From NCBI GenBank assembly GCA_964187785.1, contig OZ076409.1, positions 36,024,001 through 36,088,000 of the forward strand: a stretch of 64,000 nt of DNA. Direction: 5' to 3'. Shown in pieces: positions 1-25,423 of this stretch (within the stretch, counting starts at the first letter, position 1; each line of letters starts with the position of its first letter). This stretch comes from Amphiscolops sp. MND2022. Its lineage: Eukaryota. A program made the translations under genes and the position numbers. Below the pieces are notes generated by a model that was given only the letters and a program-made list of their open reading frames with translations, searched no databases and was not told the origin of the DNA.

Positions 1-3000
1 TCAGCTGGTTTCGGTAGTGCTGATATTAAACTGTTTCGGTTAGATCCTGAAACAGAGCATATCTTTTTGTTTATCATACCCAGAAGGTTTTTGTATATCG
101 TACCCCCCCCGTATATATTCGGTTGCATACATTTTCGGTTTGATCTTCTGACAGATGATTTTTCGGTTTCTAAATATATTTTTTCTTTCTCACCTGTAGG
201 CATTTCACCGTCAGTTTGCAGTTTCAATTCGTCTTCGAGGTTTGTGTTGATCGGCTTGTACCCGTTCCTTTCGGATGTATCCGGAGTTTCCATTTCAAAG
301 TCACTTTCCTCGTCAATTTCGCCTTCTTCACTTTCTGACTCCGATTCGGACTTGCGTGTCCGGCTTTGGATAATTTTCAGTTTTCCATTGAGTATGTAGC
401 GAAGTATTTCGTTCCACTGAATATATTTCCCGTCGACGCCTCGGAGGCAATGTCAATTCTTCGGTGTGATTTTGTCTCCGATTTGCGGTGCCTGTTCTTT
501 CTTCTTTTCGGTCTGAAATACAATTGGTCTCGAAATGTGTTTTCGGTGAATTACTTTTCCACTCACGGTGGTTACGGTATGTTCAGTTCCGCTTACTGCG
601 GTTTGGATTTTCTTTTGAAACTTTCCTTCTAGTGATTTTCTATTGTAGTTTTTTTCTACAAATTGAGAGGGATTTGTAGACCGAATTTTTGTTTTTCGGT
701 TGTTTGTCCACCGCATTTCCCTCGGCTTTAGTCTTTGCCTAGACCAGGTAATTTGTAACATTCCCTTCTTCATCTCTCGATAAATAAATTGGGATTTTTG
801 GCTTTTTCTCAGCTGTAACAATTAGTTCGGTCCAATCAGAGAGGAATGATTTACCATCTTTAACCAGATTGGTTATTTCGGTTCGCGGCTTCCTACCGTG
901 ATGTAATTCGAATTGCGTTAATTTCAATCCGGTGTGTATTGTGAATCGCATTACTTTTAATGCTCTATTTACGCATTCGGTCAGGCATAAATCACCTTCT
1001 GAATTACCCACTATTAAAATCTTCATGGTTTGTATTGCGCGTTCTACTGCTCCCGTACCGGTATGTATTCTTGGTGTGCAGTATTCTATTTCGATGTTTT
1101 TCGATTTACAGAATTTGATGTAATCTTTTGAGATAAATGCTCCCCCTTTATCCGATTTGATCTTTTCCGGTATTCCGTACAAATTAAAGTTTTGTTCTGT
1201 GAAATTAATCACCTCTTTCGCTTCGGATGTTTTGCAAGTTTTTACAGTCGGCCATTTGTTAAATCTGTCTACCGCAATCAGTAGCTAATTCTCTCGGTTC
1301 ATTTTTCTGTTGTGTAATTTTCCAGTGAAATCAATTTGGATTTTTTGTCTCGGTTCAATATGTGTTTTCAATTTTCCGCTCTCGTTTTTCGGTATTTGGT
1401 ATTTTAAATTCTTACCAGATGATAGGCAGTCTATACAATTTTTGACTTTGTCCTCGATGTCTTTGTGAATATTCGGCACCAGAAGATTTTTGCCCCGGCT
1501 ATCATGTTGGTGGTTCCGGCATATCCAAAGTGTAAAGTATCCAATAGCTTTTTTCAGAGCTCGGTTGCTACGATAATTTTGTCATATACAAATGTTAATC
1601 CCCTTTTTGTTGAGATGTTTTCAAATTGTTGTCGGTAGTGTTTCGGCGCCATGCTGCGATCTTCTCTAGTTAGTGCTAGTTTGATCCGGTTTAACTCGGC
1701 GTCCGTTGCCAATTTTGCAATTAGACTTTTCAGGTCCAGCTTTTTAAATTGTTTTTTCGGTAGCTTTCTTTCTTTCCTTCGGTGACTACTCCGATTTTTT
1801 GGTTGAATTGCACGTAGTGCGCTTCTTTCCTTTCCGTGCTGTAATTTTTTAGGTCGACAATTGGTAGATTGTCTCCGCGTATGATTTGGCTCTCTCCTTC
1901 ACTCTCCGGGTCATTTTATTGTTCTTCCGGCGGTTGTTCTTCCATCTAAATGTGGTCCGGTTCTTCTACAGTTTCTTGGAGGGGTCGGTAGCCTCCCCCC
2001 AGCCTGTTTACACGCTGTATCACTTGTCCGTATATTTCGGCAATTTCTTCCCTACTTCTTTTGTTCGGTCGGGACAGTACCCAGATCGTTCGTTGAGCGT
2101 TCTGGTCATAGCGTCTTCTCATTGTGCCGGATCTGGCGATCTCCAATCTTTTCTCAACTAGCCTTCGTGTTTCCGGACTCTTTTCTCTCCTTTCAATAAC
2201 TTGCATGATTTTGGCGGTTGCGCTCCAATGAAAATAGTCACGGTCCATTTCTTCTTCGATTGATGATGTTGGTAATTTCGAGTGATTATGTAATGGTAAA
2301 TTTTCTTGGCGTTTGAATTTTATCGCGTCACTGTTTGGACTGATTTCAGTTGGTTCGTTTGTTTTGTTCACGTGTCGATTCTTCTCAAAGGTTCTATTTG
2401 TTTCTGATTGACTGTTCGATTTACAGTCGTTCGTAACTTTCGTGTTCGGTGTGCGCTGCAATTGGTTCGTGAAAACTCTTCCGTATTTCAGATTCAGTTC
2501 GGCTTGTTTCGTGAGAATGTTTATTACGTGTTGTTCATCATACATATTTTCGGTCATGGCGCCTTCTACCGGATTGCGGCTTAGGAAGTCTGTGAATTTC
2601 AAAATGCTTCCGGTAATATGCTGTATTGAAATATCGAAATGTGCTAGCTGGTCGAACCATCTGGTTAGTCTTGCGATGTTTTGTTTGTTACATCTATTTC
2701 ATTTAATTTGAGGTTCTAATGCTTGGTGGTCGGTGCAAAGGAACACCTTTTTTCCGTATAAACAAAAACGGAAATTTTCTAAACCTCATACAACTGCTAA
2801 AAAATCAAGTTCTCCGGTTGAATAATTTTTTCCGCTGTCGTTGAGAAAACTACTACCAAACGCTATCGGTTTTAATTCTCCCTCTGCTTGTTTCTGCCAT
2901 AATGTTATTCCGAGGCCGGTTCTGCTTGCATCGGTTGTCACGATGTTATCTTTGTCATTGGCGTAATGTGCTAATGCCGGTTCTTTGGTTAGCATTTTCT

Positions 3001-4320
3001 TCATCGTTTCGAAATCATTTTGTTGTTCCGTTTGCCATTTCCATTCTGTATTTTTCTTCAGTAGTTTTCGTAGTTTGTCGGTTCTTTCTGACAGTCTCGG
3101 TAGGAGTTTTGCCAAATAATGTATTGCCCCGAGGAACGATTTTAGTTGTTTCGGGTTTTCCAGGTGTTTCAAATCCAGTATGACTTTACCTTTCTCTTTG
3201 TTCGGTTTTATCCCGTCTTCATCTATTTCGTGTCCAAGCCATTTCATTTTCTTTTGGAAGAACTCGGATTTCTTCTAACTCGCTCTATAACCGGCATTCT
3301 CGAATTTCCTCAATACATCGAACAGTTTCTTTTCGTGATCTTTTCGGTCTCCCCGAGTTACTACTATAATATCGTCTAGCCATGCGGGTGTACAATATTC
3401 CAATGTTCGGTCGATTTTTTCTTGGAAAATTGTGGGTATGTCGGCTAGTCCATAATATCCTTTTTTGAATCGGTAGTTGCGGCTGAAGTTTCCCCCGGTG
3501 ATTGCAAACACACATTGACTGCTTGTTTCTTCTGATTGCATTATTTGACCGTATGCATAGTCAAGGTCTATCTTTGATATCATTAATTTTTTTGATGGGT
3601 CTCTTGTTATCTCTACCGAAATTTCATTCAACAATTCTTCCATGTTCGGCATGTGTGGTTGGATTTTGATGCAGCTGTCATTCAATTTTCGTGTTTCTAA
3701 AACTATTTTTACAGATTTATCGTTCTTTACGGTTAATACTACTGGTGACACAAAACAATCTTCATCTACTTGTTTTACTCTTTCCAAGTGTCCGGATTTC
3801 GTTAGTGTTTCGATTTTTTTTCCAACTGCTTCTTGTAAGTGGAGAGGGAATGGTCTTGCCTTTTGTTTTACCGGATAGTGTCCCGGTTTGAATTGTAAGT
3901 TTATTTCGGCATCTTTTATGGTCGTATTGTTTCTGAACAAGTCCGGGAATTTCTCTACGATCTGTCTCTTTTCTGATTGGCTATTCTCGTCCAATCGGTT
4001 GTTTCCGATTGTTAGTCTGAATTTCTTTAACCAGTCCTTTCCGAGTAGTGGTGTTTTATCATTTCGTTCGGTAATTAGTAATTGCAGCTTTTGTTGGTTG
4101 TTCTCGTATTCAATGTCCACCGGTATTTTCCCTCGGAATTTTACTTCGTTCTTGTTTACATCTTGGTATCGGTGCTTCACTTTTTGAATTTCGGTGCCTT
4201 TCTTTATTGTGTTGTCCGCCGGGTTTATCGATTTTGGTCATCCGGTGTCTATTATAAATTCTTTCTCCGTTCCGTTGATTTTCACCGTCGTTGTTAAATA
4301 TTTGTTTTGTTCACGATTCT
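1..4320 (-). pseudogene. pol: pol of Gypsy A (PR-RT-RNase H-tether-integrase), broken
   Basis: ORF fragments 3275-4180 (RT), 2786-3247 (RT thumb/RNase H), 1946-2602 (tether), 1285-1479 and 739-1212 (integrase). Confidence 0.9.
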
Positions 4321-8050: not shown

Positions 8051-9536
8051 GGCAAAATGTGTAAACAGTGCAAAAAAATCAAAAACACGAAAACGGAAAT
8101 AAAATAATTTAAAACAAAAAGGTAAATTTTTATAATGCAGTTTTTAGCCAACAATTAGAAAAGTACAAAATCTCGGCCTTTTTGTTTTTCTACATAAATT
8201 TCGGGATGATTTCTTTTCATTTTACTGTGCATTTTTGTATCACTTGCAGAGTTCAAAGACTGTACTAAAATCGTTCACCACTTACTGTACGATTCTCTGC
8301 TCGACTCACTGCCATAATGAGGCTAACAATCTTTCGTGTGCACACAAAAGCGCCCCAGTCAAAAGCGCCCAAAAGCAGATTTTGTTGCAGCCTCCCGTGC
8401 GAGATTTTCAAACTACTGATTATCTACCACAAAGACGATCTTCTAGTATCTAGTAATCTTCTAGTATCCACATCTAGCGTTTCCGCCTCAAACTATTTTT
8501 CAGAAGAATTTCTAGTGAACAAAACTAAACATTGTAAGTTCTTCCCAAAAAAGTTTGATGCAAGTTTGATCCAACGTGCATGACGGTGATGTCGAATACG
8601 CTAGCCGGCTCTCGATGCAACGAAAATTCCCGGAATTGTTTTTTTTAAATTGAAGTCCAAAAACGATTTGAGTTGAACAAGTGGAATCCAAGATTTCATC
8701 TGAGATTTTATCCAAGATGTCTGTACAACCCTTGATCTGGAATATATTTTTAGGTTTTAGAAAAGTTACTTAAATCAAGATAATCACACATCTTAGCGTG
8801 ATGTTCGAGCTCTTGGAGAACTGGAAAGTGTTAATGATCCTTGATCGCGCAGACTCATCCTTGGTTCAATCAGTAAAGTCTGAATTTCTTGAAAGATCTT
8901 GGCATCATCAGGTAATTGGCTACCTTTCAGAGAAGCGGTCAGATACACACAATCTTAAATACACACTCTACTCTTGTTTCGAAATTCGAAGTCCTCCTTA
9001 CTGACGGTCTATTAGAAGAATCCTTAGAAAGATATGGTTCAAATAAGTTCTCATTAAAACTTTCTTCTAAATGGTGTGAAATAATTCAAACTAAGTTAGA
9101 CGCAAAGTAGCTGATGATTGAATAAATATATTTAATGATTGGTCTAGTTGAATTGTAGTTCCTGAAAAATATGAAAGTTAGAGACAGTTATTGAATCCTA
9201 ATAAAATTTGCAGTTTTGTTCTTTGATTTAGTGGTTACAAAGTGGTTTAATAGTGGTTTAATACGTTGGGTTCCGGGTTTCATCAGCTGATGTGACTTTT
9301 AAGATCCAGTCTGGAACATAGATGGGGTATGTATGCTGGGCTAAAGATTCATATCGCAAACAACGTAACTGGCCTGATGAGCAGAGCCTAGCCGTTCAGT
9401 GAATAATCTTTGTAATTGGAAGCTTTCAAAATAGCCACAACGCTAAACGGATCTTCGCCAACAGCCACTCTGCAATCAGGCCCAGAGTATCGTTGGACAT
9501 GGCGTCACCTTCAACGTCATGATACCATGGTGTGCA

Positions 9537-11092
9537 TGTAAGGACTGTCGTCTCTAGGTGGTCTAAGGTCAACAGTAGACTGTGAGTCCCTTTTTGTAAT
9601 TTTGTTTTTAAATCCTCTATTCATTTCAGTATTTTCCTGGCTGTTGGGGGACGAGCTTGCCTCAGTGTCTCGGTTCCCTGAGGATGAAATCGAGCTCACA
9701 ATATTCTGAATCTCTGGGATTACTCTCTCAGTTATCGCTGTACTAATAGCCATGTTTATCTGGCTATGCATTAGTGACATCATTGAATCCATTTCTTGCG
9801 AAAGTCTCATGTTGAATTCGCTAGTAAAAACTTCTAGTGTTTCTTGAACACTATCTTGCCTAGGTATTACATTTTCATGTGCATAATGCCCAAATTCATT
9901 TTCGTGAGTTTCATATCTCGAAGATTGAAGGTTGGACTCAATGTCTTAATCATTTCCCACATTTCCAATCCTATCCGAAAGCTCGCGTTCAATAGGATTA
10001 ATGTTTCCATTTCCTACCATTACGTCTGCATTCTCAAAGTCGGACATCATGTCCATTTCCCTTGACTTTCTAGCTTTCGCCTTTTGTTTCCTTGTAGAAG
10101 GCATAAGAGACAATTGCAAGAGGTGAGAGTTAAGTATCTTTAAGCTTGCAAACAAAATAAGATCAATTGACAGGCTGCATCTATTATCAAAATTGTCTCC
10201 CCGGTCCCAGAGTCCCGGGTATATATATGATAAGTTGCATGACTGTCGAAAAAATAACTGTCATGTTCTAAAAATAGATAAATGATAGTCTTAAAATAGC
10301 ATCACCTACATGTGGATTACATGATGTAATGACCTATTGGCCACATCAAAGGCGTTACACCGCCTCATTCGTCCTGAAGGGACAACTGCACTTTTATGAT
10401 GATGAAGGCAACACTGCATGTAATATTCATGTAATAATTGCATATCCAAATCACACTCTCATATACTTTAAGCAGGAGAATTTAGACTTTGGCCAGATTC
10501 AGCCTTTGAGCCAAGAAAAGGGCTTCAAATATAGCACCTTTATTTGTAAGAACGTAATTGTACGAAGCATTATTCTTCAAATTAAGTCCTTTACTATAAT
10601 CATGAAAGCACCAGTTAAATTGGACTCAGTGTCTCATCGCCTTAGCAAGCATATTAGTATTTGAGAATGAACGGCGCGTGGCCATAATGTCCACTAATAA
10701 CAGCGCTGTATTAGAGTGCTCAGTTGAATGGTGAAATGTGATTGGTTGATTTTAGTTTGGACTGCTTGTCCACGGCGACAGAAGAGAAAACACTTTGAAC
10801 ACGTTTCCTCTACCTGTACCCCTTGGTGTCCAATTCACATTACATCTAATTATATTTACATGTTTTAAAACATAACTAACAAGGAATATATCCACTAATT
10901 GTACGTAATTACATGACATAATAATAATGTAAACCAGTAATACAAAACAGTTTTATCCCAAAGTTTTAATTATGAGCCTTGGATTTCTTGGACTTGTTGT
11001 CTCGACTGTTTGCGTTTCCTCAATCTAGTGGAATTGTTCCAGGTAGGGCCCTGCAATAACCATATGCGACCGTGTACCAGTTGCCATCGACA
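9537..11092 (-). repeat. 3' LTR of Gypsy B (1556 bp)
   Basis: Direct repeat of 23627-25196, preceded on the minus strand by the PPT; lacks 16 bp of the terminal palindrome. Confidence 0.95.
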
Positions 11093-11825
11093 CTCCCCCT
11101 GGCATAAGCAAAAATGTGCCAGCAGCCATTCCGTCAAGGAAAGCTCTCTTTCTTCTTTCGGTTTCAGCTAACGTCTCGCCTGGGACCACTGTTTTGTTGA
11201 GATAGTCGTTGACTGCTTCATCCTGTATTTGTTGGACTGGTTTCCCACAAACCACGCAGTCCGAACAGCCCAACAAGCCCGCGTTCCCAGACACTGTCAT
11301 GTCATTGAAGTGATTTGCCACAGTCTCGACTGAAGTTGAGCTCGTCGAGTAAGAACAGCTCGGTATATCTTGTTCACAAGCTGGTCCCCTATCTTCTGGT
11401 GGCGGCGAGATTGGGGTATCAATATTAGGTCGTAGGTCTCTGCAAATATTAATAGGATGATTGGGTCTAATTCGGTCATCCGGTCCAATAGGTCCATTGC
11501 CCATACCCAGGTTGAAAAACTGTTGTGTGAATGTAGGAAAAGGCGGCAAATCTGGTTTAGGCGTCTCGCATCTTGCTTGAGTACCTGTTGTCTCTGCGTT
11601 GGGAATAGCGATGGGTTCGGCCATTTGTCTCTCTATGCATCTCGCCATAATCTCGATGTCCAGCATTTCCTCTTCAGATGAGACGTAGACGTCGTCCACT
11701 GAGTCACCATCGAAGGATTTCATTTCTTCGTCCTCATCGCTTAAAATACATATTATCGCAGGAGCTTCCTCAGATTGAGCAGCGCCCAAGAAGTTCATAG
11801 GGAATGTTTCAGAAAAGTCAGACAT
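11025..11825 (-). CDS. Accessory sense ORF of Gypsy B: acidic protein of unknown function with a CxxCxxC motif; overlaps the PPT and LTR
   Basis: Uninterrupted 266-codon ORF from an ATG; D/E-rich N-terminus, CSDCVVC motif; no obvious signal peptide or TM segment. Confidence 0.7.
   Translation of the reverse strand: MSDFSETFPMNFLGAAQSEEAPAIICILSDEDEEMKSFDGDSVDDVYVSSEEEMLDIEIMARCIERQMAEPIAIPNAETTGTQARCETPKPDLPPFPTFTQQFFNLGMGNGPIGPDDRIRPNHPINICRDLRPNIDTPISPPPEDRGPACEQDIPSCSYSTSSTSVETVANHFNDMTVSGNAGLLGCSDCVVCGKPVQQIQDEAVNDYLNKTVVPGETLAETERRKRAFLDGMAAGTFLLMPGGVSMATGTRSHMVIAGPYLEQFH
11093..11102 (-). promoter_or_regulatory. Polypurine tract of Gypsy B
   Basis: Minus strand reads CCAGGGGGAG|TGTCG immediately before the 3' LTR. 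Confidence 0.8.
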
Positions 11826-11839
11826 GAATCTAGCTTTTA

Positions 11840-12103
11840 TTATTTTTTTGGCAATTTTTGAAAAGAAAAGAACTTTCGTATTTTGGGTTTCGGAGGCAGC
11901 TGACTAAAGCTGTTGAAATCGTATAAATAGCGATCTTCTTCTTCATCGTCTCGTGGGACTTCCACCATATCACGAGTTTTCTTTCCCGGGTTTTCTGTTT
12001 CGTTTCCCGTCTGGTAAATTTTCAATAACAAAATTTTCTTTCTTAAACCTTTCATCAAGCCGCTAAGCCACTTCATATTTGCAATTACTTTGTTGATCAT
12101 CAT
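11840..12103 (-). CDS. Small accessory sense ORF of Gypsy B (87 aa), unknown function
   Basis: ATG-initiated; basic N-terminus and acidic patch DDEEED; ends 14 nt before the ATG of the 266-aa ORF. Confidence 0.4.
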   Translation of the reverse strand: MMINKVIANMKWLSGLMKGLRKKILLLKIYQTGNETENPGKKTRDMVEVPRDDEEEDRYLYDFNSFSQLPPKPKIRKFFSFQKLPKK

Positions 12104-12865
12104 CAGTTATGCTAGCACTTTCAAGTTAGGAGTGTAACTTCAAGTGTTTATTAACACTCATCAGGTACTTGAGAGTTTCAAGTAGGTGAAGATAAGGCAG
12201 ACAGCCACGCCGTCCACCACCAATCTAATCAACCAATAGGAATTCAGCAAAATTCCTTCCAAGATGGAATTGCTTCCCAAGGTCGTAAGTCCATATAAGG
12301 AATAATATAAAATGTCCTTGAAAATAAATAAAATAGTGTTAAAATCATGAAATAATTCTCAAAAATAACAAAGTTTTCGAAATAAATGAAATATTGTAGA
12401 TATTGCTGGCAGACTTTGTCCACATAGTGCTGTAAATTGTAAATAGCAACAAATTTGACACCAAACTGTATAGCCACGAACTCCAATCTTGACATCTTGT
12501 CACATCATCTATTCATCTTTTCAATTCCTTACTTTCAATTCTACCACTTTTAGTCTTCTTTTATCCAGTATTTAATCACCATCGTAGTTATTCATCTCAT
12601 ATTTATTCAATAGTTAGTCGCTGAGTCACTTTTATTTATATATTCTCATCTAATCTTCATCTCGGGACTCAGTGTCCATCTGTCCCCATCTTTGTGGATT
12701 TGTTTGGATCGTTCCTGCTAATCGACATCCAGTCTTCGACCTTGCAATTCCCTTTCCAGTCCCAGTGCGAGGTTCTTTTCTTGAAAACACTGACAATCCT
12801 GGTATCTACAGTGGTTTTGCCTTCTGTCGTGTATAGCAACAACTTGGCTCAAAACATTCTTTATT

Positions 12866-15800
12866 ATGGAGGATTCTAACAGCAGACTTCCCGACAATCG
12901 TGTCCAAACAGGTCAGTAGACTAAAGGTTTCTTTTCAGTTTTGTTCTAAAATTGAACTCTTGAGGTTTGATCAGAACTCTCTTTCGTTCACGTGCTTCCT
13001 GTTCAATAACTCCAGTGTTCACTTGAGTTCAGATTATTCACTTCCGGAAGAAATTTTACCGCGGTAATGGATTCATATTCAGGAAGGTTCCCGCTTGATT
13101 TTATTTCTTTTTGCTTAGACATGACGTCTGAACAACAAACTGAAAATATTGAATTGCCTACTGCCGATCCCAACGTTTCTGCCCAAAGTCTGCCGGAACA
13201 ACGTGCTGACCCATCCCTTGAGGCCAGACCAACAGAGACGGATGTCTTCCCGGAGCTTCGTCCTTTGTCTAATTTATCTTCAAATAGTGGCAATACTGAG
13301 GAGAGCCTTTCCACCTTCGCGGAACAGACCTTACGTAGTCTAGCCCAGATTGATCCCAGTTTGGACGTTACATTTTTGTCGGCCCTGGATAAAACTCCTT
13401 CACAGAAAGAGGCTGAGTCAAATCCACTCAAGGCTTCAGAGTCGGAGGCCCTATCTTCTTCACAGTCTAGAGCAGGGCAAACCAAGGTTGGACAGCAGAA
13501 GAATACCGATTTACTCGATTTAACCTCTTTTGACATCGGAGAAGAGCAGAAGAAGAATTATTTCGAAACAGATGCCAGTGAAGTTGAAGACATTTACGAC
13601 AGCGCGGGCGAAGACGGATTGACTGACAGGCCCACATCCAGCATAGTTGGGTTTGATCTCCAGGCTACATCAGGAGAATCCCCAGAGCTCGAGTGTCCGA
13701 ATACCAACAAGCCGCAAGGGCCTGAGACACACAAGGAACCCTCCCTGCCAGCGGAGTTGTCTGTTATGGGCGGATTGTGCTTCGCAAACATTTTGCTCAG
13801 AGTGCTCCCATTGACCTTCCCCGGGGGCACACTACTGTTGCATTTACCGAACCCCAAATCCATGCCGTGTTAAAAACAATCTCGGATGAAACAGTAAAAT
13901 CATCCCTGCATGCTATGCGGTCATTGGTCTTACCTGCGGTCCACTGAGGAAAAGGACACACTGCTGGGCAACTTAGAAAAGCTCTGATCCGTGGAAGCGT
14001 CCCAGCAAGAGCCATGTTAGCCAGCTCTGAAGGAGAGTCGGACAGCGAGGGATGTACGACCGACGGCTACTCAAGTGGGCATATGGAACAGACGAAGACA
14101 TAGCTGGTACGACCTACAGTCAGGACGTTGAATCTGACGCAAGTTCTTCCGCAGCTCAGACGTGTATTGTGATGAGAAGAGAAGGCGCAGCACCGCGTTC
14201 AGGACAGATCACCGTTCCTAGTCCGGGATACAGTGAAGGTGACTATGAGCCTCTTTGCCAAATGTGTCCCCAAGCCAAACATCAACATTCTGGAGTTGCC
14301 CATCTCGGAAGAGACGAAAGCTACAACCACGCCCCGGCAAGGTAATGAAACCCTCTTACTTTAAAGGAATACAATGGACAAAAGTGTTTGTCAGCGGCCC
14401 ACTCGATCCCGTTCATAACAAACACAAATTTTATTGCCAGATATGTAAAACCAACCTATCTATATATTCGAAAAGTGAACGAGAGATTGTCCGCCACTTC
14501 CGATCTGAAGGCCATCTGCGCAAAAATCAGAGATGGCGCTACGAACATTCGGGTAAACTCGAGAAGATTTCTGGCAATATCATCCATTCGGTCAGGGGGA
14601 GAGACGGGCACGTCCTTACCCCATTCGAGCTAGAGAAGGAGAAACCGTTGTTTGAGTCAGCTCCCCTAGTTTACATTGGCCCTCGATTTCCGTTTTACGA
14701 CGAGTATATGTCAAGTGCAGGGGGCTTAACCAGTTCCGAAGACATCCGGTCCGGTACCCAAATATCCTTGATTGGTCGATTCGTCCCTTATTTTGGTAAC
14801 CTCGCAACTCTGCAAGGACTTTGGACCGAGGTGGGCAATTTCACAAACCATCAGGAGCTATTCGGCGACATTTATTGGAGCTCCACCAAGCTCACGGTAT
14901 GTATTGTGTTTGCTTACCTTCCTTTTAATACCGATTTTGGAGGAATGAAGAAAGGTTTCGTAATAGACCGTCTGTCCCTTGTATTTTTTAAATGCAGAGT
15001 TTTGTTTCAGGCTATTTTCCATCACATTTTCCTGCGTGGAATGGAGGACGTGGCGCAGACAGTTAATGACAGTGGGTTATACTCCCTTGAGGTTGAGCCA
15101 CAGGGGGGCAAGGAAATCACCTCACTTCGTTACTGGAAGTCAGGGTTCCTTGTGAAGCTCCAGCTGTTCCAGTACAGTTTGGCCTCTGATCCTGACCATA
15201 ATCAACTGCTCGTCGTGGCACGACTCTTGTCTCTTCTGTCCACAGCTCCCCAAATCGTTTGTATGTGTGGATGCACTGCTAGCGTCCTCCGGACCGTTGA
15301 AATTTCTTCCTTACTAAAGAAGGGGATTGAATACTCATTCCGTTATCAAGTGACATCTCTTCACAAACTGATGCACAAACGAGAGGGAAGTGTCTTCGGG
15401 CGGATCGACTTTTATTCGCAGCTCAAATACTTACTAGCGTATTTGGCCCACAGTTTGGACGAGCCCTGGATGAGTAAAGCTCCTGAACTCTCTAAGGTTG
15501 GTTTTATGCCTTGGTCCTTAGGGTCGAGTCCTTCATGCACTTTTTATCACGTAGTGTTATTTTGCAGGCTATTAACAATTGTGACCTGCGACTCCTCTCC
15601 TACCTGCCATATATTCGGAGATCATAAGGAACTGGACTGCTTTCTTGGATCACATAACTCTGATTGCACCCAATTACGAAATGGCTGGAGTCAAAAATAA
15701 GGTTGTAAGTCCACTTCATTGACTAATGTGGGTCGTAGTTTGATTTCTACCCCCTAGTGGTCTGCTCATTACTGATGTTTTTATTTCCTTTTAGCCGCAA

Positions 15801-17148
15801 AGTCTTGAGTGGCAGATAATCAGCGACGACTTCTTCTTGCTGAAATTGGAGTTCTACGGGAGAATCGTGTATGATTGTTTAGTATCCTTTGTCTGGTCTT
15901 CATACTTAGGGTCGAGGGATCAGAATAAGTGTCCGGTAAATCCAGAGGACATCGAGAGCAGTTTACCGTTACCGATTTCCACTGTTTAGATAACGCCTGT
16001 TTCGAAAGGAGCCTGGTGGGACACCGAGATTCTGGGTTCTTTACCTTCGGCCAGTGAAACAGCTTTGTGAGAAAACTTTGTTATCTAGCCCTTATCCCAA
16101 AACATCTTCCCAAGGATACAAACTGGAGACCGTTACCCGTTCTTCGAACTGCTGATCTCCGTTAATTGTCTTCTCGAGATTTCCTTACTTGGTTGAGATT
16201 AAAGCAAGACTTGGAAGCTGCTGCAACAGCCAAGGTGAAGCGAGACCACTGTGACCAAGAGGGGCCCATTCCCAACATGACTGCATTAGTTGAAGAAACT
16301 AAAGAGAAATTTGTAGCCAAGGCCAGGAGCTATGTTGTTACCCTCCTAGAGATTTTCCTGGGTCATCTTAGATTAAATGCCAACATCGTATGTGGGATGG
16401 CTTGCTTCGACCCTAAAATCATCTTGTGCCTACCACTCGAGCAAGCCAACTTTTGTTTCACCGCACTCTATCAGAGTTTCAGTCTCCGAGGTTGGCTTGA
16501 GGGTTCACCAGAGAACGACTGTCGAGATGAGTACCTTGACTTCGTTGGGCTTTTCCGACAAGCCTATCACTCCCTGAAAGATTCCCCTAATGGTTTCTCG
16601 GACATGGTCAATTTGCTTTCATCTATGCCTGAACTCCGTAATCGGGCTCCTCTCTACCGCTTTTTCCAATTGAGTTGTATGTGTCTGACTGAGAATACCC
16701 CATTGCTTCCTTCCATTCGCTTCCACGATGTTGACGCTCAAAGGCCAAAGTGTAGTTTGGGGGATGTCCTCTTGCCTGCACAATCCTACCTGGCCCGAGT
16801 TCCTGAGGCTTCATCTGTTTGCATTAAGGATGATTCTCTCAGTAAGTTACGAGAAATAGAGAAGAGTTTAACACAGGCAATGTGGCTGGGGACCCTTGGA
16901 CCCACGTTGATGTGTTCGGAAGGGCTGATTTCTACAAGGTTCTTTGGCAGAAGCACAAGTCCCTCTCACAGAAAACCAAATCGCTGTCTTCCAGTCGTTC
17001 GTCCTGCAGGTCCACTTCACCTGTTACTAGCAAACGTCGAAGGGATTCTCCTGAAAAGGGAAAGCGGAAAGTAGGTTTCAAGTCAACATCACCGCCAATG
17101 GGAGGTTCTGCGGCACATGATCCTGGGCAGACCGCAGCTAAGCCTTAA
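12866..17148 (+). pseudogene. Antisense multi-exon cargo gene of Gypsy B: C2H2/BED-like zinc finger plus hAT-transposase-like body; this copy has stops and frameshifts
   Basis: Predicted exons 12866-12911, 13119-14896, 15011-15496, 15568-15704, 15795-17148. Introns are GT..AG with pyrimidine tracts; introns 1, 2 and 4 join in frame. Motifs: RKRRK, FYCQIC-x16-HFRSEGH, YSLEVE..LRYW, MACFDP, PLYRFFQL. AATAAA at 17317-17322. Confidence 0.8.
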
Positions 17149-17376
17149 ATGTACATAGTATACATTTGTGTTTTATCTGTTTCTTATGTATCTATCATAA
17201 ACTTTGTATGTTATTTATTTCATCTGCCTTTATTTTGTGGTTTTGATTTATGTACCACTGAGTCTTTTGTTGTCGACAGTAAGTTTGTATTAAATTTTCG
17301 CAGTCAGAGTAGTCCCAATAAAAGCGTTATCAATTTTAGTCCATGAGACTTCCGGGACTTTAATTTACATGTTTGA

Positions 17377-20300
17377 CTAGTATTTGTATTCATCAGAAAA
17401 GTTGGGATTGGGGTTAGGTCGAAGATTATATTTCCCTCCTCTAAGACTAGAATTTTTTTCAGTTTTTTCATTTTCCGATATTCTGGGCACGGTAATGTCT
17501 GCGCCTCCATTTGAAGCAATTTCTGTGCTTTCTAAATCATTAGTGACGTCATTTTCGTCTTCTGTCCTCATAGGCGATTCATTCAGAGAGGATGGTACGT
17601 CTCGGCTGGTGGCCGGTCTCGACCTTATTATATTCTCGTTTGCGTCACTTTCATCATTTTTTGTCTCAATTGGCGTTTCGCTCAGCGGGAACGGCGCATC
17701 CTGTGTAGTGGCCGTTCTCGGCTGTATTTCGTTTTCAATGACGTCATTTTCATTCCTTTCGCTGCTGCTGCATTCGTCATTTGTCGTGTTGCTGCATTCA
17801 CCTTCGGTGACGTAATAGTCCACTCCGCCGCTTGCGGCGTCATTCGGTAGGCGCGTGGCCGTGTACGGCCAATCATCTTTTCTCGGCTCAAACAGTTCGT
17901 ATTCAAAGTCCGCTTCCAATGAAATGGTGTATAGATCATCTTGCGGTATTATTATTGATTCGTCGGGCTGTAATTTCTCTTCTTTGTACTTGTTCTCTAG
18001 TGGGACATTTGAAACAAATTTTATGAGTCTGATCCGGTGTAGGATCTGCGTCTTATTTGTATTTAAACGAGGTACTATATAATTGCTGTTCGGTAAAACT
18101 TTTTGGACGATAAAGGGACCAGTCCACCTGAAGTCTCTAAAAAGTATTTTAGAGCCTTGACTGTCGGCTTTCGGCTGAAGAACAAAACAGTAGTCCTTTT
18201 CTTGTAGCGGAGCCGCTTTGGCCTTTCGGTCGTAGTATTCTTTGTATTTTAAATAAGACTGCATAATATTCTTTTTCGTCTGGTTGATGAAGATTTGCGT
18301 CTTCTGCTGCAGTTCTTCTGCAAATTCGGTTGTCGGTAGGATTATTTCTTAATTTATGATCAAGGACATTGTAGGGAATTCGGCCATGAAAAACTTTGCT
18401 AGGCTCACATCCAATACGAGAGTGATAAGTAGTGTTATAGTTGAGCACAGCTAATGGCAAATATTTATGCCATTTGGCGTCGATATTCCCCTGAGGCCAT
18501 CTTCAGATTGGTCTTTAGAGAGGCATGAGACCTTTCAAGTGTGCCAATAGTTTCCGGGTGTTTTGTAGTAGCGCATTTTAATGTTATTCCCAGTATTTCA
18601 GTAATTTTCTCTAAAATCTTTGAGGTAAATGCGGACCCCTTGTCTGTGATGAGGGTTGTCGGCAAGTTTGAATGTTTCGTCTTTATATCAATTATCACCT
18701 TGGCCACATTTGCGGCTGTTGCCTCAATTAGCGGGGTAGGCGAATAAATATCTTGAAAATACATCTATTGCCGTCATCACTGTTTGGTATCCGCCGCTGG
18801 TTGGTAAATTCGGTAACAAGTCAATTTGCATGGCATCTCCTGGGCCAAGGTCCCATTCGGGCAAATTCAATAGTTCCGGAGTAATTGCCGTATTAGGTAC
18901 CCTTTTGTCCTTGGCACATGTTTCACAGCCTTCTACCCATTTTTTGACGTGTTTTGCAATTCCGGGGTAGTAGTATTTTTGGCGAATTTCCTGTAGCATT
19001 TTGGAAATGCCTGGGTGTCGATGTGCCGTGCAATGTATTGCTTGTAATAATTCTTTGAGTAAATGTTTTGGTAATAAGATTTGATGATATTTGACTTGTC
19101 CGGTTTCGTCGTAGTACTGCCGTGTCACTATTTCATCCTTGAGGACTATTCGGTCTATATTGTTCAAATAGTGTTTGTACCGAAAATCCTGTTGAAGGAT
19201 TTCTTCAGAGTATTCTTCTTTTTGAAGTTTCGCCTTCAATTGGGACAAAATCGGGTCTCTAGACTTTTCAAGCTGTTTCTGATTCGTTCTTCGCAATTTT
19301 TGTGTGAAATTAGTGATTTCCTCTACCGTATTTTCTGATATGGCGTCAATTTGAATTACTGTCTCAGGGATCATGAGTCCCTTTTTGGATTGCTGTTTCC
19401 GTTCCCAAATCTGTTGTTCTGTTTCTTTGTCTTCTTCAGTAAAGCAGACTTGTTCTTCTTCGGACACTCCGGCTGATTGGACATTGACCTCAATCGATCT
19501 GGTTTCAACGTCTTCGCGTATTTTCAGGACTAATTTTTCAGTAGGTTCTATTTCCATACGGGACAGGTAGTCCGCCGCTGTGTTGTTTTTGCCTGGAATG
19601 TGAGCTATGATGAAGTTGAATTGAATGACAAAATCACAAGCATTCCAGAGTGGCGGTGGTATTATCTTTGTCTGGAAGAACCTCGTGACTGATTTGTTAT
19701 CTGTGAGGATAATCACGGGTTGAGGTGTTCCCCAGAAAAAATGTCCAAATCCTAGAATGAGTAATATATAGCTAGGAATTCCTTTGCATATATCGACATT
19801 TTGAGCGGAGATGGAGTAAAATTTTTTGATCCGTATGCAATTGGCGCATAGGATTTTTTGACAGAAGTATATTTCTGATTTGGGTCATCTTCGGTCAATA
19901 TGGCGTAACCTGCTGCTGTAAAACTTGCATCAGTCATGAGGACTAGTTGTTTGTTGGGCAGAGGTTGTTTCAACGCTAACTGACTGCATCTATCTACGTC
20001 TCGGTTGATCTCATTAAATTGTTCTTGGTATATAATTTCTGTAATAGTTGAGGAAACCAAGATATCGTTGTAGGGCCTTCTTGAACTTTAGGAATTTCGT
20101 CTTTTCCAAGAAGTTAGTGATTCTTTCTTTTTGGGGTTTTACACCTTCAGGGGTAATTGTTCTTCCAAGGAAGTCGATTTCAGTGGCCCCAAAATGGCAC
20201 TTGTGCATGGACAGTTTCAATCCCGCTTCTCTAACGCATTGGAATGTTGCTCTTAAGTTGGTGATGGGTTGGTTGGCGTCTGTTGCCGCAACGCCAATAT

Positions 20301-22490
20301 CGTCTACGTATTGAGCGCATTGGTCGCCTTTTATAACTCGATCTAGGTATTCCCTCATAAAACTTAAAACTGGAGAAAGCCGACAGGGCTCCACTGAGGC
20401 CCTGAGCTAATCTCATGTATGCAAATGTCCTGCTGGCGAATATAAAAGCCAGCATTTCAATTGATTACTGGTCTGCCATGGGGAGACAAGGGTAAGCTTG
20501 GGAACAGTCGAGTTTGCAAAAAAGTTTTTTGCCGGCCATATGTTGCGCTGCGTCCGTCAAGGTGCTGACTGGGTGGTTGTATTTGACGTAGTCGTCTGAA
20601 ATCAGATTGTTAATTTTCCTCAAATCCACAAACAGTCTCAGTTTTCCATTGGGTTTTTTCTGCGCAAATATTGGACTGGCGTACTTTGAGAATGGTAATG
20701 TCGTTATAATTCCATATTTGTGAAGCAGCGCCAGTTCGACCAAAATGTCCTTTTTGAGGTTGACCGGAGTAGGTAAACTCTGACTGTAAGCAGGCGATTC
20801 GTCCTTTGGGGTCAATTTGACTGTAAATTCCTCATTGACGCGAATGTCAAATCTATGTCGAGCGAAGATATCATGAAATTCTACTAATAGGGTTTCTATT
20901 TGTCTGATCTCATGTTGCTGTAGCATTGAGTCCTTCCAATCAAAATTGCTGAGGAATTTTCGGCGGGATTCTGCATCGTCATGCGGATTGAGTTGTTCTA
21001 AGTTTTGCAAGTTTCGTAATTCCTTGAGAATTCTTTGTTGTATTGGGGTGTGAGTTGTTTCGTCCCCTAGATTTTCAGGCGTTGGAAACCAATATTGTTC
21101 GTAATGGTCGTTATTTCTGTTGGCTTTGATAAGACTACTAATATAGTAACTAGCGTCGTCCTCATTTTCGTTCAATAAATGCCAGGTGGACACTGGGTCT
21201 ATAGGTCTGACATATTTCATCTGTTCAGGGGTCATCACTGAGAAATTTGCGATATGCGTCCCTTTCTTGAGTTTGTAGGGTTGATCGGTGAAATTGTTGA
21301 CGCGTATGCTCATAGCCCCTTCATGTAGTGTGACTATAGCGGCACAAAAGGTTATGTCGCCTTCTTCGTGTAGAAGGTCCCTGGGTTGTAGTATACCCGT
21401 AACTGCGTTTTCTGCATAGATTTGGGATTGGGTATATATGACTACGTGGTCATTTGGTGAAATTAGTGCATCCTCAGGATAGGTTCCCGTACATTTGAGT
21501 ATTTATGGTCAACCGTTTTGAGTTGCATCGAGAAATATGGAAAATTGAGTATACCTTGGCGCATGTCCAGGACGGTATGATTCCTTTGGAGGAACATCAG
21601 TCCAAATATTGGGCTGGACAATTTTTCCATTACTACAACGATTTCATGGAATTCTATGTCTCCCACTTCAAATTTTAGTTCGACTAAACTCTTTGGGGTT
21701 TCGAGATCTCCATTCTCGACCATTATTTGGAAAGATGGAGCAGGACCTTATTTTACTATGGATTGGGGGACCAAGAGGCGTATTTTCCTGAGGTCTGATT
21801 CTGCTATTGCACTAGAGTGGGCCCCAGTGTCGCTTAGGCCATCTAAGGTCAATCCCCCAAAATCCATTGGGAAGTAGTGCATTCGTCGTTTGAATATAAG
21901 TCCAAGGTTCGTTGAAAGGGGAACGTAGGGTGTTTCTCCTTCCTTGGCTACTAAAAGGTGCAAGAAGGCCGTTTCATCTAGGAGGCTAGTAGGGTCCTTG
22001 TGGTCTTCCTGCCGTTGGATTGTTTCCACTTCTGGTGAAGTTGCTTCAAAATTTGGCTGCCAAAGTTCGATGAGGGCCCGAGATATGGTATCGTCCACAA
22101 TGTCCGGGTCATCTTCATCATCAGTTGGAGGATAGTCATCACCTGTAAATTGTAGGTTTTGTTTATCGTATAGTTCATCATCCCAATACGGGTCTTTTCC
22201 ATAGTCGGGGTCTAAGTATTGAGAGTTATAATCTTCGATTAATGGTAAAGGTTGGAATTGGGTCTCAAAGTTTTTAGTGTAGTCCATGTCATAGTATTGG
22301 TCTGGGCGATCTATATGTACTGCTTTGTAAGTTTTGATGTAAGCTTTTTCTATCTGTTGCTGCCAGACAACGGACGGGATGCCATTGGTGTCTTTAACAT
22401 ATTGTCGGAGGTTTATTATTGGAGGATCTGATATGACACATTGTCGTACTGACATATAGTCATGTATCTGGAGTCGTGGCAAAATCAGTT
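17377..22490 (-). pseudogene. pol: pol of Gypsy B (PR, RT, RNase H, integrase with GPY/F motif), frameshifted
   Basis: LSDTGA protease; KLDCSQAY and YVDD RT; MTDASF RNase H; HCTAHRHPG...CETC, IDLL, TDKG, LERSH integrase; WTGPF; acidic C-terminal tail. Confidence 0.95.
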
Positions 22491-24192
22491 TTTTGACTCA
22501 TGCTTTTTGGAAGTGGATTGGCTTGAGGAGGATGTTTCATTGTTGTTATTTGCCTTCTTGTGTTTTTCATCCTCTTTTGAGTCATCGTTATTTTTGTCAT
22601 CATTGCGATTCCTCTTGGGTCGTAGATATGCTCCAGCGCCTTGCCAACATCGCTCTGTCGGGTGACTCTTTTTCCCGCATGTATCACACGGTGGGTATGT
22701 TGGGCGCTGTGGTTTCTTGCCAGTCTTGTCTTCGAATTCTTTTTTCTTTTTCAATTTTGGACAATTTTTGTAAAAATGGCCATTTGCCTTACAGAAGGCG
22801 CATTGTGCATCTTTGTTGGTGTCGATGCCGGTAGATAGTTAGCTGCAGCTACTTGTGGACGCTGAGGCCATTGTGGTGATTGGTAGGTCATCCGATTCCT
22901 CCAGTGCATTGAGTTCGAGCTCTCTTTCAAGATGAGCTACAATTTCTTCATATGTCCCATTCTCTAGACGGGCCACGTTGAGAGATCGCTTCAGCTTTGG
23001 TGGTAATTTGGCATAGAGCAAACTGTCAATCATGCTTTTGGCATTTTAACCAAAGGCTTTCTCGGCACCTTGGTTCAGCTCTTCTAAAAAGTCAGGCAAT
23101 TTCATCGTATTAGGGTCAACAATGAGTCTGTGCCATTTGTGTTTGGCTGTTGCCTGCGATTCTGGTTTTACATATTTGCGTCTAAATATGACCAGGACGT
23201 CTTCAAGTGTTTGACGGTTAGTATTGTTTATGTTCGTGAATGTTTGCAGTGCCCCTTTTTGGAGCAAGGAAAGAAAATGATTAATTTTCATCTGCTCAGT
23301 CATTACAGGTTGCATTTTTATCATTGTATGGAACAAATCTTCAAAGAGTTCAAATTTTTCACTTTTACCATCAAATGTCATGGGGGTGGTTGTAACTGAT
23401 CTAATTGTCATCGAGTGTGGTTTGTTCTGAAGGTTGACTAGCACATCAGCTAATCTATTTATCGGGTCCTGGGGTGTTTGTGGCACCTCAGGCTTTGGGT
23501 CAGGTAGATTAGTGTCCAAAGAGATATTATGGCTTGATTCTTGTCTCTCAAGGTTCGGTTGTGAGTGGATTCATCCAGTCAGGAATTCAGGAATTTGTCG
23601 TTGGGCTTCGGTAGCTCCTGTCACCATGTAAGCACTGTCGTCTCTAGGTGGTCTAAGGTCACCAGTAGACTGTGAGTCCCTTTTTGTATTTTTTTAAAAA
23701 TCCTCTATTCATTTCAAAATTTTCCTGGCTGTTGGGGGACGAACTTGCCTCAGTGTCTCGGTTCCCCGAGGATGAAATTGAGCTCACAATATTCTGAATC
23801 TCTGGGATTACTCTCTCGGTTATCGCTGTACTAATAGCCCTATTTATCTGGCTATGCATTAGTGACATCATTGAATCCATTTCTTGCGAAAGTCTCATGT
23901 TGAATTCGCTAGTAAAAATTTCTAGTGTTTCTTGAACCCTATCTTGCCAAGGTATTACATTTTCATGTGCATAATGCCCAAATTCATTTTCGTGAGTTTC
24001 ATGTCTCGAAGATTGAAGGTTGGACTCAATGTCTTGATCATTTCCCTTATTTCCAATCATATCCGAAACCTTGCGTTCAACAGGATTACTGTTTCCATTT
24101 CCTACCATTACGTCTGCATTCTCAAAGTCGGACATCATGTCCATTTCCCTTGACTTCCTAGCTTTCGCCTTTTGTTTCCTTGTAGAAGGCAT
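22485..24192 (-). pseudogene. gag: gag of Gypsy B, starting inside the 5' LTR
   Basis: ATG of MPSTRKQK at 24192; capsid-like FDGKSEKFELFEDLF; knuckles CAFCKANGHFYKNC (~22765-22805) and CDTCGKKSHPTERC; several frameshifts. Confidence 0.85.
23614..23626 (-). promoter_or_regulatory. Primer-binding site of Gypsy B, tRNA-Leu-like
   Basis: Minus strand reads ...TTACA|TGGTGACAGGAGC, close to the tRNA-Leu PBS TGGTGTCAGGAG. Confidence 0.7.
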
Positions 24193-25196
24193 AAGAGACA
24201 ATTGCAAGGGGTAAGAGTTATTTATCTTTAGGCTTGCAAACAAAATAAGATCAATTGACAGGCTGCATCTATTATCAAAAATGTCTCCCCGGTCCCAGAG
24301 TCCCGGGTATATATATGATAAGTTGCACGACTGTCGAAAAAATAACTGTCATGTTCTAAAAATAGATGAATGTTAGTCTAAAAGTAGCATCACCTACATG
24401 TGGATTACATGATGTAATGACCTATTGGCCACATCAAAGGCGTTACACCGCCTCATTCGTCCTTAAGGGACAACTGCACTTTTATGATGATGAAGGCAAC
24501 ACTGCATGTAATATTCATGTAATAATTGCATATCCAAATCACACTCTCATATACTTTAAGCAGGAGAATTTAGACTTTGGCCAGATTCAGCCTTTGAGCC
24601 AAGAAAAGGGCTTCAAATATAGCACCTTTATTTGTAAGAACGTAATTGTACGTAGCATTATTCTTCAAATTAAGTCCTTTACTATATTCATGAAAGCACC
24701 AGTTAAATTGGACTCAGTCTCTCATCGCCTTAGCAAGCATATTGGTATTTGAGAATGAACGGCGCGTGGCCATAACGTCCACTAATAACAGCGCTGTATT
24801 AGAGTGCTCAGTTGAATGGTGAAATGTGATTGGTTGATTTTAGTTTGGACTGCTTGTCCACGGCGACAGGAGAGAAAACACTTTGAACGCGTTTCCTCTA
24901 CCTGTACGCCTTGGTGTCCAATTCACATTACATCTAATTATATTTACATGTTTTAAAACATAACTAACAAGGAATATATCCACTAATTGTACGTAATTAC
25001 ATGACATAATAATAATGTAAACCAGTAATACAAAACAGTTTTATCGCAAAGTTTTAATTATGAGCCTTGGATTTCTTGGACTTGTTGTCTCGACTGTTTG
25101 CGTTTCCTCAATCTAGTGGAATTGTTCCAGGTAGGGCCCTGCAATAACCATATGCGACCGTGTACCAGTTGCCATCGCAGGCGGCCGCCTGCGACA
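23627..25196 (-). repeat. 5' LTR of Gypsy B (1570 bp)
   Basis: Minus strand TGTCGC...TACA, followed by the PBS; direct repeat of 9537-11092. Confidence 0.95.
24305..24430 (-). promoter_or_regulatory. Candidate LTR promoter (CCAAT and TATA) upstream of the gag ATG
   Basis: Minus strand has GGCCAATAGG (24421-24430), then TATATATA (~24308-24316), about 115 nt before the ATG at 24192; same in the 3' LTR. Confidence 0.5.
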
Positions 25197-25423
25197 GTGC
25201 ATCCTAAATCCTTTGATCTCAAGCAAGACAAAACTCTTTGTGCTATCTTTGGTCGGCATTTTCGGAGTAATACCACGACATTCACAGTGGCTAGTTTTTT
25301 CTCCAGTCGCTCTGATCCGTCCACTTTTACGGAGAACAGATGAGGAAAGTTTATTCATATGGTAAAGACCATTTGACATAGGCAGCACGCTATTTTCGAA
25401 TTGTTGACGTTTTATCCGATGTT

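Follow-up and report, generated by a model that had tools for sequence, protein, structure and literature searches.

A conserved antisense gene with five predicted exons in a Ty3/Gypsy retrotransposon lineage of Amphiscolops sp.

The window analysed here, a stretch of 64,000 nucleotides of Amphiscolops sp. MND2022 (positions 36,024,001-36,088,000 of OZ076409.1), holds a retrotransposon of the Ty3/Gypsy type with long terminal repeats (LTRs), which occupies positions 9537-25196, is 15,660 bp long and has its sense strand on the minus strand. A gene on the plus strand, 13067-17148, sits between pol (17377-23570, minus strand) and the 3' LTR (9537-11094), and is therefore antisense to the element. 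As predicted here, it consists of five coding exons from an ATG at 13067 to a stop at 17148, spans about 4.1 kb and, where it is intact, would code for about 1,230 aa. An earlier note on this DNA had placed such a gene between pol and the LTR, on the strand opposite to pol, and both position and orientation are as claimed there. That note had further read the gene as integral to the element, as captured from a hAT-type DNA transposon, and as an architecture not known from any described family; its observation was partly confirmed, and its reading was right on integration and wrong or unproven on origin and uniqueness. Genome searches covered the 1.07-Gb assembly, and two groups of copies served for comparison: the window clade, comprising copies 69-94% identical to the window's antisense gene, and the young family, a distant relative family in the same genome with about 48% protein identity in exon 5. 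The assembly contains 43 matches to PF00105, the zinc finger of nuclear receptors, as against 0 for WRKY, a plant domain; nuclear receptors being confined to animals, the host is treated as an animal. Coordinates are collected in Table 1.

Table 1. Positions of the retrotransposon's parts and of the antisense gene's predicted exons and introns in the window.
Feature	Positions	Strand	Remarks
Target-site duplication GTGCA, left	9532..9536		Same pentamer directly outside both LTR ends
3' LTR	9537..11094	-	Inner end near 11094, adjoining purine tract
ORFx, extra sense-strand open reading frame, 292 aa	11025..11903	-	Extends into 3' LTR; conserved in young family
Conserved non-coding block	12101..12578		81% DNA identity over 495 nt to young family
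Candidate alternative 5' intron	12912..13118	+	First intron of the earlier note; conserved donor and acceptor
Exon 1	13067..14896	+	610 codons in both families; ends ...KLT; in the window 3 frameshifts, 1 stop
Intron 1	14897..15010	+	114 nt, GTATGT..CAG, phase 0; GT..CAG in 10/10 copies
Exon 2	15011..15496	+	162 codons in both families; predicted RNase H-like beta-sheet core
Intron 2	15497..15567	+	71 nt, GTTGGT..CAG, phase 0; kept in 9/10 copies
Exon 3	15568..15701	+	45 codons in both families; one frameshift in the window
Intron 3	15702..15794	+	93 nt, phase 0; GT at 15702 in 9/10, TTTTAG acceptor in 9/10 copies
Exon 4	15795..15876	+	27 codons and 1 nt; peptide conserved in young family
Intron 4	15877..15989	+	113 nt, phase 1; GT in 10/10, AG in 9/10 copies
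Exon 5	15990..17148	+	385 codons and TAA; in the window 1 frameshift, 1-2 stops
Candidate poly(A) signals ATTAAA 17289, AATAAA 17317	17289..17322	+	In 3/10 clade copies
Decayed gag-pol	17377..23570	-	Pfam; 7 high-scoring segment pairs in shifting frames against intact relative
Primer-binding site, TGG start	23609..23626	-	Directly inside 5' LTR; read from sequence
5' LTR	23627..25196	-	Blastn and global alignment; contains conserved reading frame 23659-24348 (-)
Target-site duplication GTGCA, right	25197..25201		Same pentamer as on the left side

Structure of the element and its antisense gene

Judged by its LTRs, its target-site duplication (TSD), its primer-binding site, its polypurine tract and the order of reverse transcriptase (RT), RNase H and integrase, the element is a Ty3/Gypsy (Metaviridae) LTR retrotransposon. 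The LTRs are about 1.57 kb long; in a blastn comparison of the window with itself, 9535-11089 matches 23625-25177 at 96.9%, while the global alignment of 9537-11108 with 23627-25196 has 1514 matches, 53 mismatches and 8 gap columns, which corresponds to 96.6%. Both LTRs begin with TGTAAG and the right one terminates in GCGACA, giving the TG..CA ends. With GTGCA on both sides, the paired LTRs and the pentamer duplication reported in the earlier note for 9537-25196 were confirmed. The purine run AGGGGGAG just ahead of the 3' LTR represents the polypurine tract, the minus strand being the sense strand. Within the decayed pol pieces, Pfam matches to Integrase_H2C2, rve and RVT_1 were found, along with RNase H and a weak gag-like match, and pol ends with a stop at 17377 on the minus strand. 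In an intact relative the order of pol domains is RVT_1 (21-186), RT_RNaseH (278-376), Integrase_H2C2 (574-629), rve (650-745) and Integrase_p58_C.

The exon-intron structure of the antisense gene was read by comparing the window with the young family and with ten copies of the window clade. Coding DNA of the young family hardly aligns with that of the window, so that conserved signals stand out; in a conservation profile the close copies are too alike to part introns from exons, and the young family was used instead. Introns 1, 2 and 4 have counterparts there that differ in length: intron 1 is 85 nt long (GTAAGT..TAG) and likewise in phase 0, intron 2 is 68 nt long (GTAAGG..TAG, phase 0), and intron 4 measures 150 nt, with a phase and junction codon identical to those of the window clade. 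Intron 3 is missing from the young family with the frame preserved, the peptide KNK being followed directly by PQS (minus strand of place L031, about 1470-1630). This difference represents a gain or loss of an intron within a retrotransposon-borne antisense gene. Frames that are broken in the window are open elsewhere, namely frames of 676 aa and 635 aa for exon 1 and of 397 aa and 394 aa for exon 5 in other natural copies, and a frame for exon 3 that is open and bounded by an acceptor and a donor in 7/10 copies. For exon 2, most of the 150 scored places (out of 6179 candidates) span residues 1-162, at identities from 100% down to 49%, and some are shorter or broken by stops.

The four introns listed in the earlier note fared differently. 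Two of them, 14897-15010 and 15497-15567, are exact, with GT..AG in 10/10 and 9/10 copies, respectively. For a third, given as 15705-15794, the acceptor stands, but the donor lies 3 nt upstream at 15702, where GT is found in 9/10 copies as compared with 2/10 at 15705. The fourth, 12912-13118, does show conserved splice signals: the donor CAG/GTCAGT is invariant in 4/4 sequences, young family included, and the pyrimidine tract with its TAG acceptor is invariant in 6/6, an ATG following two bases downstream. Splicing at this place would, however, delete the ATG at 13067 together with 18 codons, in which 9/11 differences between the families fall on third positions (binomial chance about 0.001), so that the stretch looks translated. 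The interval may thus at best be an alternative 5' intron, one that would give a second N-terminus. The list was also incomplete, as it missed the intron at 15877-15989.

It could be argued that the conserved blocks are separate reading frames, for example coding for proteins of 610 aa and 385 aa, with the short blocks between them conserved by chance or as regulatory DNA. The junctions are indeed predicted from sequence, some of the donors are weak (GTTGGT, GTTGGA, GTTTAG), exon 1 and exon 5 are called as separate proteins in public sets of open reading frames (ORFs), and no homologue turned up in the size range of 1184-3380 aa, which is weak evidence. Those public sets, however, are apparently single-frame calls that are unable to join exons. 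Codon-like conservation is seen in exons 2, 3 and 4 (162, 45 and 27 codons) although each of the three lacks its own start codon. The conserved blocks stop exactly at GT and resume after a pyrimidine tract and AG, the phases agree between two families that have introns of unequal length riddled with stops, and where intron 3 is missing from one family the frame is kept. Separate ORFs are therefore a very unlikely explanation, and a single spliced gene with the exons of Table 1 is the reading followed below.

Conservation of the gene and of other parts across the family

As proposed in the earlier note, copies of the region 12866-17148 were counted in the genome. The search returned 56 matches from 37 scored of 1476 candidates, of which about 20 are full length at 69-94% identity. 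In 10/10 copies whose flanks were checked (10 kb on each side), the gene lies between the same pol and LTR, in the order LTR-spacer-gene-pol-LTR and in the orientation seen in the window. The LTRs of most of these subfamilies are just 75-85% identical to the window's, yet the order is kept. The arrangement recurs in the young family, whose exon 5 (P0115) is 48% identical to that of the window (P0002); of 7698 candidates 106 were scored, and they gave 107 matches, most of them with open frames and 94-99% identity among themselves. At one of its places (L031, with neighbouring L032) the whole gene converges tail to tail on an open pol frame of 1125 aa. The 3' end of pol lies 242-243 nt away on the opposite strand at no fewer than 48 of 60 exon-5 places, a lower bound, as the first 60 exon-5 places were crossed with 65 of the 155 pol-end matches. 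Finally, at three places of mosaic composition, exon 2 stands at the distance expected from pol or LTR, distances being taken by hand. The mosaics are located at G000:C8:53346188-53352191, C2:68182633-68192430 and C9:29350508-29359660; their LTR and spacer or their pol are 87-92% identical to the window's, and their exon 2 protein is 55-64% identical. Such mosaic elements indicate that the lineages recombine, apparently by swapping 3' halves, and this exchange should cause the trees of antisense gene and RT to conflict in places.

These data bear directly on whether a DNA transposon might simply have inserted into one Gypsy copy and remained a passenger outside the family. Nested insertions are common, LTR elements tolerate insertions in this region, and genuine hAT fragments occur elsewhere in the window, at 38678-39163 and 40354-40830 on the plus strand, both with hAT dimerisation domains. 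A simple insertion is nevertheless excluded by the position shared among diverged copies, the young family and the mosaics: place and orientation are the same in 10/10 copies, in the young family (about 48% identical in protein) and in three mosaic lineages, and there is purifying selection between lineages. In agreement with the earlier note, which saw neither a pair of terminal inverted repeats (TIRs) nor an 8-bp TSD, the longest exact inverted match between the flanks of the segment is 10 nt, which 45% of 200 shuffles reach, so that inverted repeats do not go beyond chance; no inverted repeat of at least 40 nt and no 8-bp target duplication were found around the segment. We regard the probability of a nested insertion as negligible. 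The gene is integral to the element, as that note had it, and in the window copy gene and pol decayed together. The similar density of lesions seen there in both was confirmed: about 3.7 kb of the antisense gene contain 5 frameshifts and 2-3 stops, and about 3.4 kb of pol, from RT to integrase, contain 6 frame changes and 2 stops.

The antisense exons are under strong purifying selection. Among nine copies (L001-L003 and L005-L010), divergence at codon positions 1/2/3 amounts to 0.155/0.171/0.285 in exon 1, 0.124/0.057/0.354 in exon 2, 0.028/0.012/0.263 in exon 4 and 0.097/0.119/0.246 in exon 5, exon 3 being outside the comparison owing to the window's frameshift; introns of the same copies diverge by 0.20-0.33. 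The ratio of nonsynonymous to synonymous divergence (dN/dS), whose computation across copies the earlier note had proposed, was obtained for 21 of 22 exon-2 sequences (L052 left out). It is below 0.5 in all 19 of the 210 pairs with 0.05<dS<1.5, the median being 0.075; the remaining pairs were saturated, too similar or gave no value. Furthermore, 37 columns of exon 5 are invariant across 25 sequences reaching down to 40% identity. In public sets exon 1 has 85 homologous ORFs and exon 5 has 67, none of them named or assigned to a Pfam family, and in a library of 50% representatives exon 5 is found in 723 clusters at E<=0.001.

The extent and age of the superfamily can be described from the same searches. 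Candidate places in the genome number 6179 for exon 2 and 15327 for the pol end. The young family looks very young: most of the matches to its exon 5 and pol end show 94-100% identity to the query, and pol frames that stay open across 1,720 aa are numerous. In addition, four copies of the antisense gene lie on one strand within 45 kb, at G000:C11:10229265-10274298, spaced by 11.5-15 kb; this cluster suggests a tandem array of elements, perhaps with common LTRs.

Besides pol and the antisense gene, the element holds two further reading frames with relatives in the young family. ORFx shows 43% identity (E 1e-63) to an ORF of 372 aa at the same place in that family (L031, 5043-6158, plus strand); it contains an acidic stretch and a Cys-x2-Cys-x2-Cys motif, and a Pfam scan of it gave no family. 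The other frame, about 180-230 aa long, lies inside the LTR: it runs over 23659-24348 (minus strand) in the 5' LTR, while its counterpart in the 3' LTR, 9517-10260 (minus strand), is interrupted by a stop. It starts with the basic stretch MPSTRKQKAKARK, has a helical heptad-like part within, and shares 61% identity (E 2e-70) with an ORF inside the LTR of the young family, whose LTR DNA can be aligned in patches only. A protein encoded by an LTR would be unusual. As for the LTRs themselves, their inner ends diverge over the last 15-19 nt or so (11090-11108 against 25178-25196), and a palindromic CAGGCGGCCGCCTG-type stretch of about 15 nt is present in the 5' LTR and missing from the 3' LTR. Upstream of RT, a dUTPase match at 20465-21502 (minus strand) is weak, scoring 23.2 bits against a cut-off of 22; a dUTPase in an animal Gypsy element would merit checking in an intact copy. 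A match in pol to DUF1759, a family associated with Bel/Pao elements, scored 24.5 bits, under its cut-off of 25.4.

Conservation also extends to sequences outside the reading frames. Two blocks, 12101-12578 and 12905-13066, are 79-81% identical to the young family, which is above most of the element's coding DNA. The former lies between ORFx and the antisense gene, in a comparison where the coding DNA of the young family is mostly unalignable, and is a candidate internal or divergent promoter or another cis element; the latter contains the invariant CAG/GTCAGT mentioned above. Rfam gave no family on 9400-25300. At the other end of the gene, the AATAAA at 17317 has a counterpart at the homologous spot in the young family, and its distance of 55 nt from the pol stop is that reported in the earlier note. 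Directly after the antisense stop, a palindrome of the TGTACA..TGTACA type (17149-17175) is kept in both families, and its predicted fold is no better than that of shuffled sequences (z -0.6).

Other repeats in the window include a fragment of a different LTR element at 739-4237 (minus strand), with rve and RT_RNaseH_2, and two copies, about 95% identical, of a 3.4-kb segment (48416-51794 and 54799-58360), between which an RT piece lies at 53874-54350.

The predicted protein and its possible origin

In natural frames, the N-terminal 430 or so residues of the predicted protein are acidic, disordered, rich in serine and poorly conserved. They are followed by a basic KRRK-type stretch resembling a nuclear localisation signal, a strongly conserved C-x2-C-x16-H-x5-H (CCHH) motif, a helical stretch and then exon 2, while exon 5 is predicted to be all-helical with a tail rich in Ser, Arg and Lys at its end. 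On the zinc-finger motif Pfam gave weak matches of C2H2 type, with E between 0.001 and 0.1, and such C2H2-like matches were all that was found at E up to 10 in the ORFs of the window, the intact exon ORFs, 25 and a further 19 homologues of exon 5, and exon 2. Sequence searches of the PDB with P0001, P0002 and the profiles A1-A3 found nothing meaningful; their best row, Taq polymerase at E 0.03, was treated as chance. A language-model atlas gave no usable match for the region of the zinc finger and the exon-1 tail.

An AF2 model was built from the window frame 14300-15496, which runs from the zinc finger and the exon-1 tail in frame through intron 1 to exon 2, using an alignment of 74 rows. Its mean pLDDT is 57, with 66-82 over the sheet, and exon 2 is arranged as b1-b2-b3-a-b4-a-b5-a. 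Nearly all of the best Foldseek rows are RNase H-like, among them the RNase H of MMLV RT (E 4e-3), the HIV-1 integrase core, RuvC, UvrC and an IS transposase, and none of the rows for the exon-2 model reaches E 0.001. Exon 2 carries invariant Glu27 and Glu29 in b1 and an invariant S86-G87-C88 just after b4, the sites of the first two aspartates in DDE enzymes. From this model, exon 2 is probably an RNase H-like domain, and with Glu and Ser-Gly-Cys at the usual aspartate sites it is read as catalytically dead.

Where such a gene came from is a matter of several competing possibilities. Transposases of the hAT type consist, in this order, of a BED zinc finger, an RNase H-like fold and a long helical region. 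The antisense gene matches this order with its CCHH zinc finger (BED-like in order), its probable RNase H-like sheet and its long all-helical region, and 24 of the 30 atlas clusters nearest to exon 5, scoring 0.91-0.93, include members with PF05699 (Dimer_Tnp_hAT). These neighbours, however, share 148-151 features, under the 170 typical of true family members, and every sequence comparison with hAT failed. At E up to 10, zf-BED, the hAT RNase H-like family and Dimer_Tnp_hAT were all unmatched in the exons, and Pfam found no hAT match in 47 distant family members (25 and 22), among them the 25 and 19 exon-5 homologues. Three family profiles compared by hhalign with a genuine hAT ORF of 697 aa from the same genome gave probabilities of 0.15-0.25%, and the comparison with the hAT C-terminus in the window gave 0.05%. 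Hermes was not recovered by the PDB profile searches and holds rank 32 among the Foldseek rows, level with ASKHA, ribosomal and integrase rows that are unrelated to it, and the model of exon 5 matched no hAT insertion domain. Residues other than Asp occupy the catalytic sites, and neither TIRs nor an 8-bp TSD were found around the segment. Genuine hATs are plentiful in this genome, all 150 scored places being over the Pfam cut-off; the hAT model thus finds the local hATs easily, and its failure in the antisense gene is not due to poor sensitivity for local hATs. With Pfam and PDB negative and hhalign below 1%, the language-model neighbourhood is the one hAT-specific signal, and the capture from a hAT-type transposon, advanced in the earlier note as the making of a class I/class II chimera, was not substantiated; we regard it as possible but doubtful.

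Alternatively, the RNase H-like domain could derive from the integrase or RNase H of a retroelement, as a duplicated, inverted and degenerate piece of pol or of a related element, or the gene could be a transduced host gene. The best structural rows, which are retroviral integrase cores and RNase H domains of RT, speak for the former, and the hhalign comparison of exon 2 with the element's own pol falls on b3-a1 of the integrase core, a structurally equivalent place, although non-significantly, with a probability of 0.09%. On the other hand, the CCHH order of the zinc finger is unlike the HHCC order of integrases, the C-terminal domain of integrases does not resemble the long helical region at the end of this protein, and an rve match is absent from the antisense gene in Pfam. 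We regard this origin, too, as rather improbable. The source may have been hAT or another DDE transposase, an integrase-like domain or a host gene, an integrase-like or host source being about as likely as hAT.

Proposed account and comparison with known antisense genes

The position of the antisense gene, its exon-intron signals, the selection acting on it and its inheritance together with the element are shown by the results above. It is likely that the window contains a decayed copy of a complex Ty3/Gypsy element whose lineage stably carries the five-exon antisense gene of about 4.1 kb along with ORFx and the LTR ORF. Introns on the antisense strand are unrecognised in the sense genomic RNA and are for this reason retained on reverse transcription. 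The GT-AG introns of this gene would read CT..AC in genomic RNA, so that they would escape splicing and be copied into each new insertion; the earlier note had argued in the same way, and its argument fits the four conserved GT-AG introns. Transcription could start at an internal promoter in the conserved region at about 12.1-13.07 kb, upstream of the ATG, and polyadenylation could take place in the gap of about 230 nt ahead of the converging pol stop, with splicing giving the mRNA for the protein of about 1,230 aa. The protein may lack catalytic activity, bind nucleic acids in the nucleus and serve the element in trans as an accessory factor; possible roles are the control of transcription or silencing and the tethering or targeting of the element.

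Several points weigh against this account. Flanks were read for 10 copies of the window clade, whereas candidate places number more than 1,400, and 12 of the 60 young-family copies have no pol partner among the matches compared. The AATAAA at 17317 is kept in 3/10 copies of the window clade. Transcription, splicing, promoter and use of the poly(A) signal are all inferred from the DNA, and the proposed function of the protein is drawn by analogy with the plant Retand/Grande and some retroviral antisense proteins. Pfam, PDB and hhalign gave the protein no relationship that would imply a known function, and both structure models are of low confidence, with mean pLDDT of 51 and 57. A further-reaching interpretation would be that a large and still young animal Ty3/Gypsy radiation permanently recruited a zinc-finger protein with a transposase or integrase fold (RNase H-like) as an antisense gene with several introns, next to two more accessory ORFs, that the element is a true class I/class II chimera, and that the introns are shielded by their strand and are gained or lost between lineages. 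We put this forward only tentatively, as it is a good deal less probable than the account given above.

For one thing, a single genome shows that antisense orientation preserves introns through reverse transcription, and the difference in intron 3 between lineages bears on intron gain and loss in genes carried by retroelements. With many near-identical copies with open frames in one genome, there is also a system in which the role of the protein as a regulator, a targeting factor or a counter-silencing factor could be tested. If the RNase H-like domain were indeed derived from a transposase, the element would unite parts of class I and class II in a stable manner. In practice, the exons are liable to be annotated as orphan host genes, or to be repeat-masked, in animal assemblies.

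Antisense ORFs between pol and the 3' LTR are known from Gypsy elements of the plant Tat lineage, namely Retand, Grande of maize (gene23) and RIRE2 of rice (PMC11963269, PMC7264820). In 97% of Retand clusters the antisense ORF encodes Transposase_28 (PF04195), a domain otherwise tied to DNA transposons, and the plant antisense protein is suspected to be nuclear or DNA-binding, with a regulatory role (PMC11963269, PMC7264820). A fungal case is brtn, an additional antisense gene of Boty-like Ty3/Gypsy elements in Botrytis cinerea (cited in PMC8365987). Given these plant and fungal precedents, the architecture itself is not new, contrary to what the earlier note had supposed. A literature search that did not extend to Repbase reports or subscription journals found no animal case of a spliced antisense gene in an LTR retrotransposon, nor any antisense LTR-element gene that combines a product of about 1,230 aa with four introns and an RNase H-like fold.

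Retand, Grande and RIRE2 resemble the present element in the location of the gene between pol and the 3' LTR, in its antisense orientation and in its presence in all or most copies of the lineage. They differ in that the host here is an animal and that the gene, at about 1,230 aa, is far larger and has four introns; the word 'intron' occurs in neither PMC11963269 nor PMC7264820. Tandem-repeat arrays were not seen in the present element. PF04195 was also absent from every Pfam scan of window ORFs, exons and homologues, so that the arrangement is of the same kind as in plants while the gene family is not the same. As far as it is described, brtn is likewise an accessory gene that a Gypsy element carries in antisense orientation between pol and the 3' LTR, whereas Boty-like elements, compared here by description, are fungal chromoviruses with small cysteine-rich proteins. 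The gene brtn is reportedly the subject of Zhao et al. 2011 in Virology.

Among retroviruses, antisense genes such as HBZ of HTLV have regulatory roles that were proposed or shown (PMC10186651). HBZ is similar in that the minus strand of a reverse-transcribing element codes for a protein, but genes of its type are small and driven by the 3' LTR, unlike the present gene, which is internal to ORFx and the LTR, probably has a promoter of its own and is not known to be related to them. Finally, hAT transposases and hAT-derived genes (Hermes, ZBED and GTF2IRD2-like proteins) resemble the antisense gene in the order of CCHH finger, probable RNase H-like sheet and large helical region, and in the language-model neighbourhood of exon 5; the differences lie in the failed sequence comparisons, in the missing catalytic aspartates, TIRs and 8-bp TSD, and in a structural match that is generic. 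Set beside all of these systems, the lineage described here is distinguished by its animal host, by a large gene with four introns and by very clean selection, with a dN/dS of about 0.08 across many lineages.

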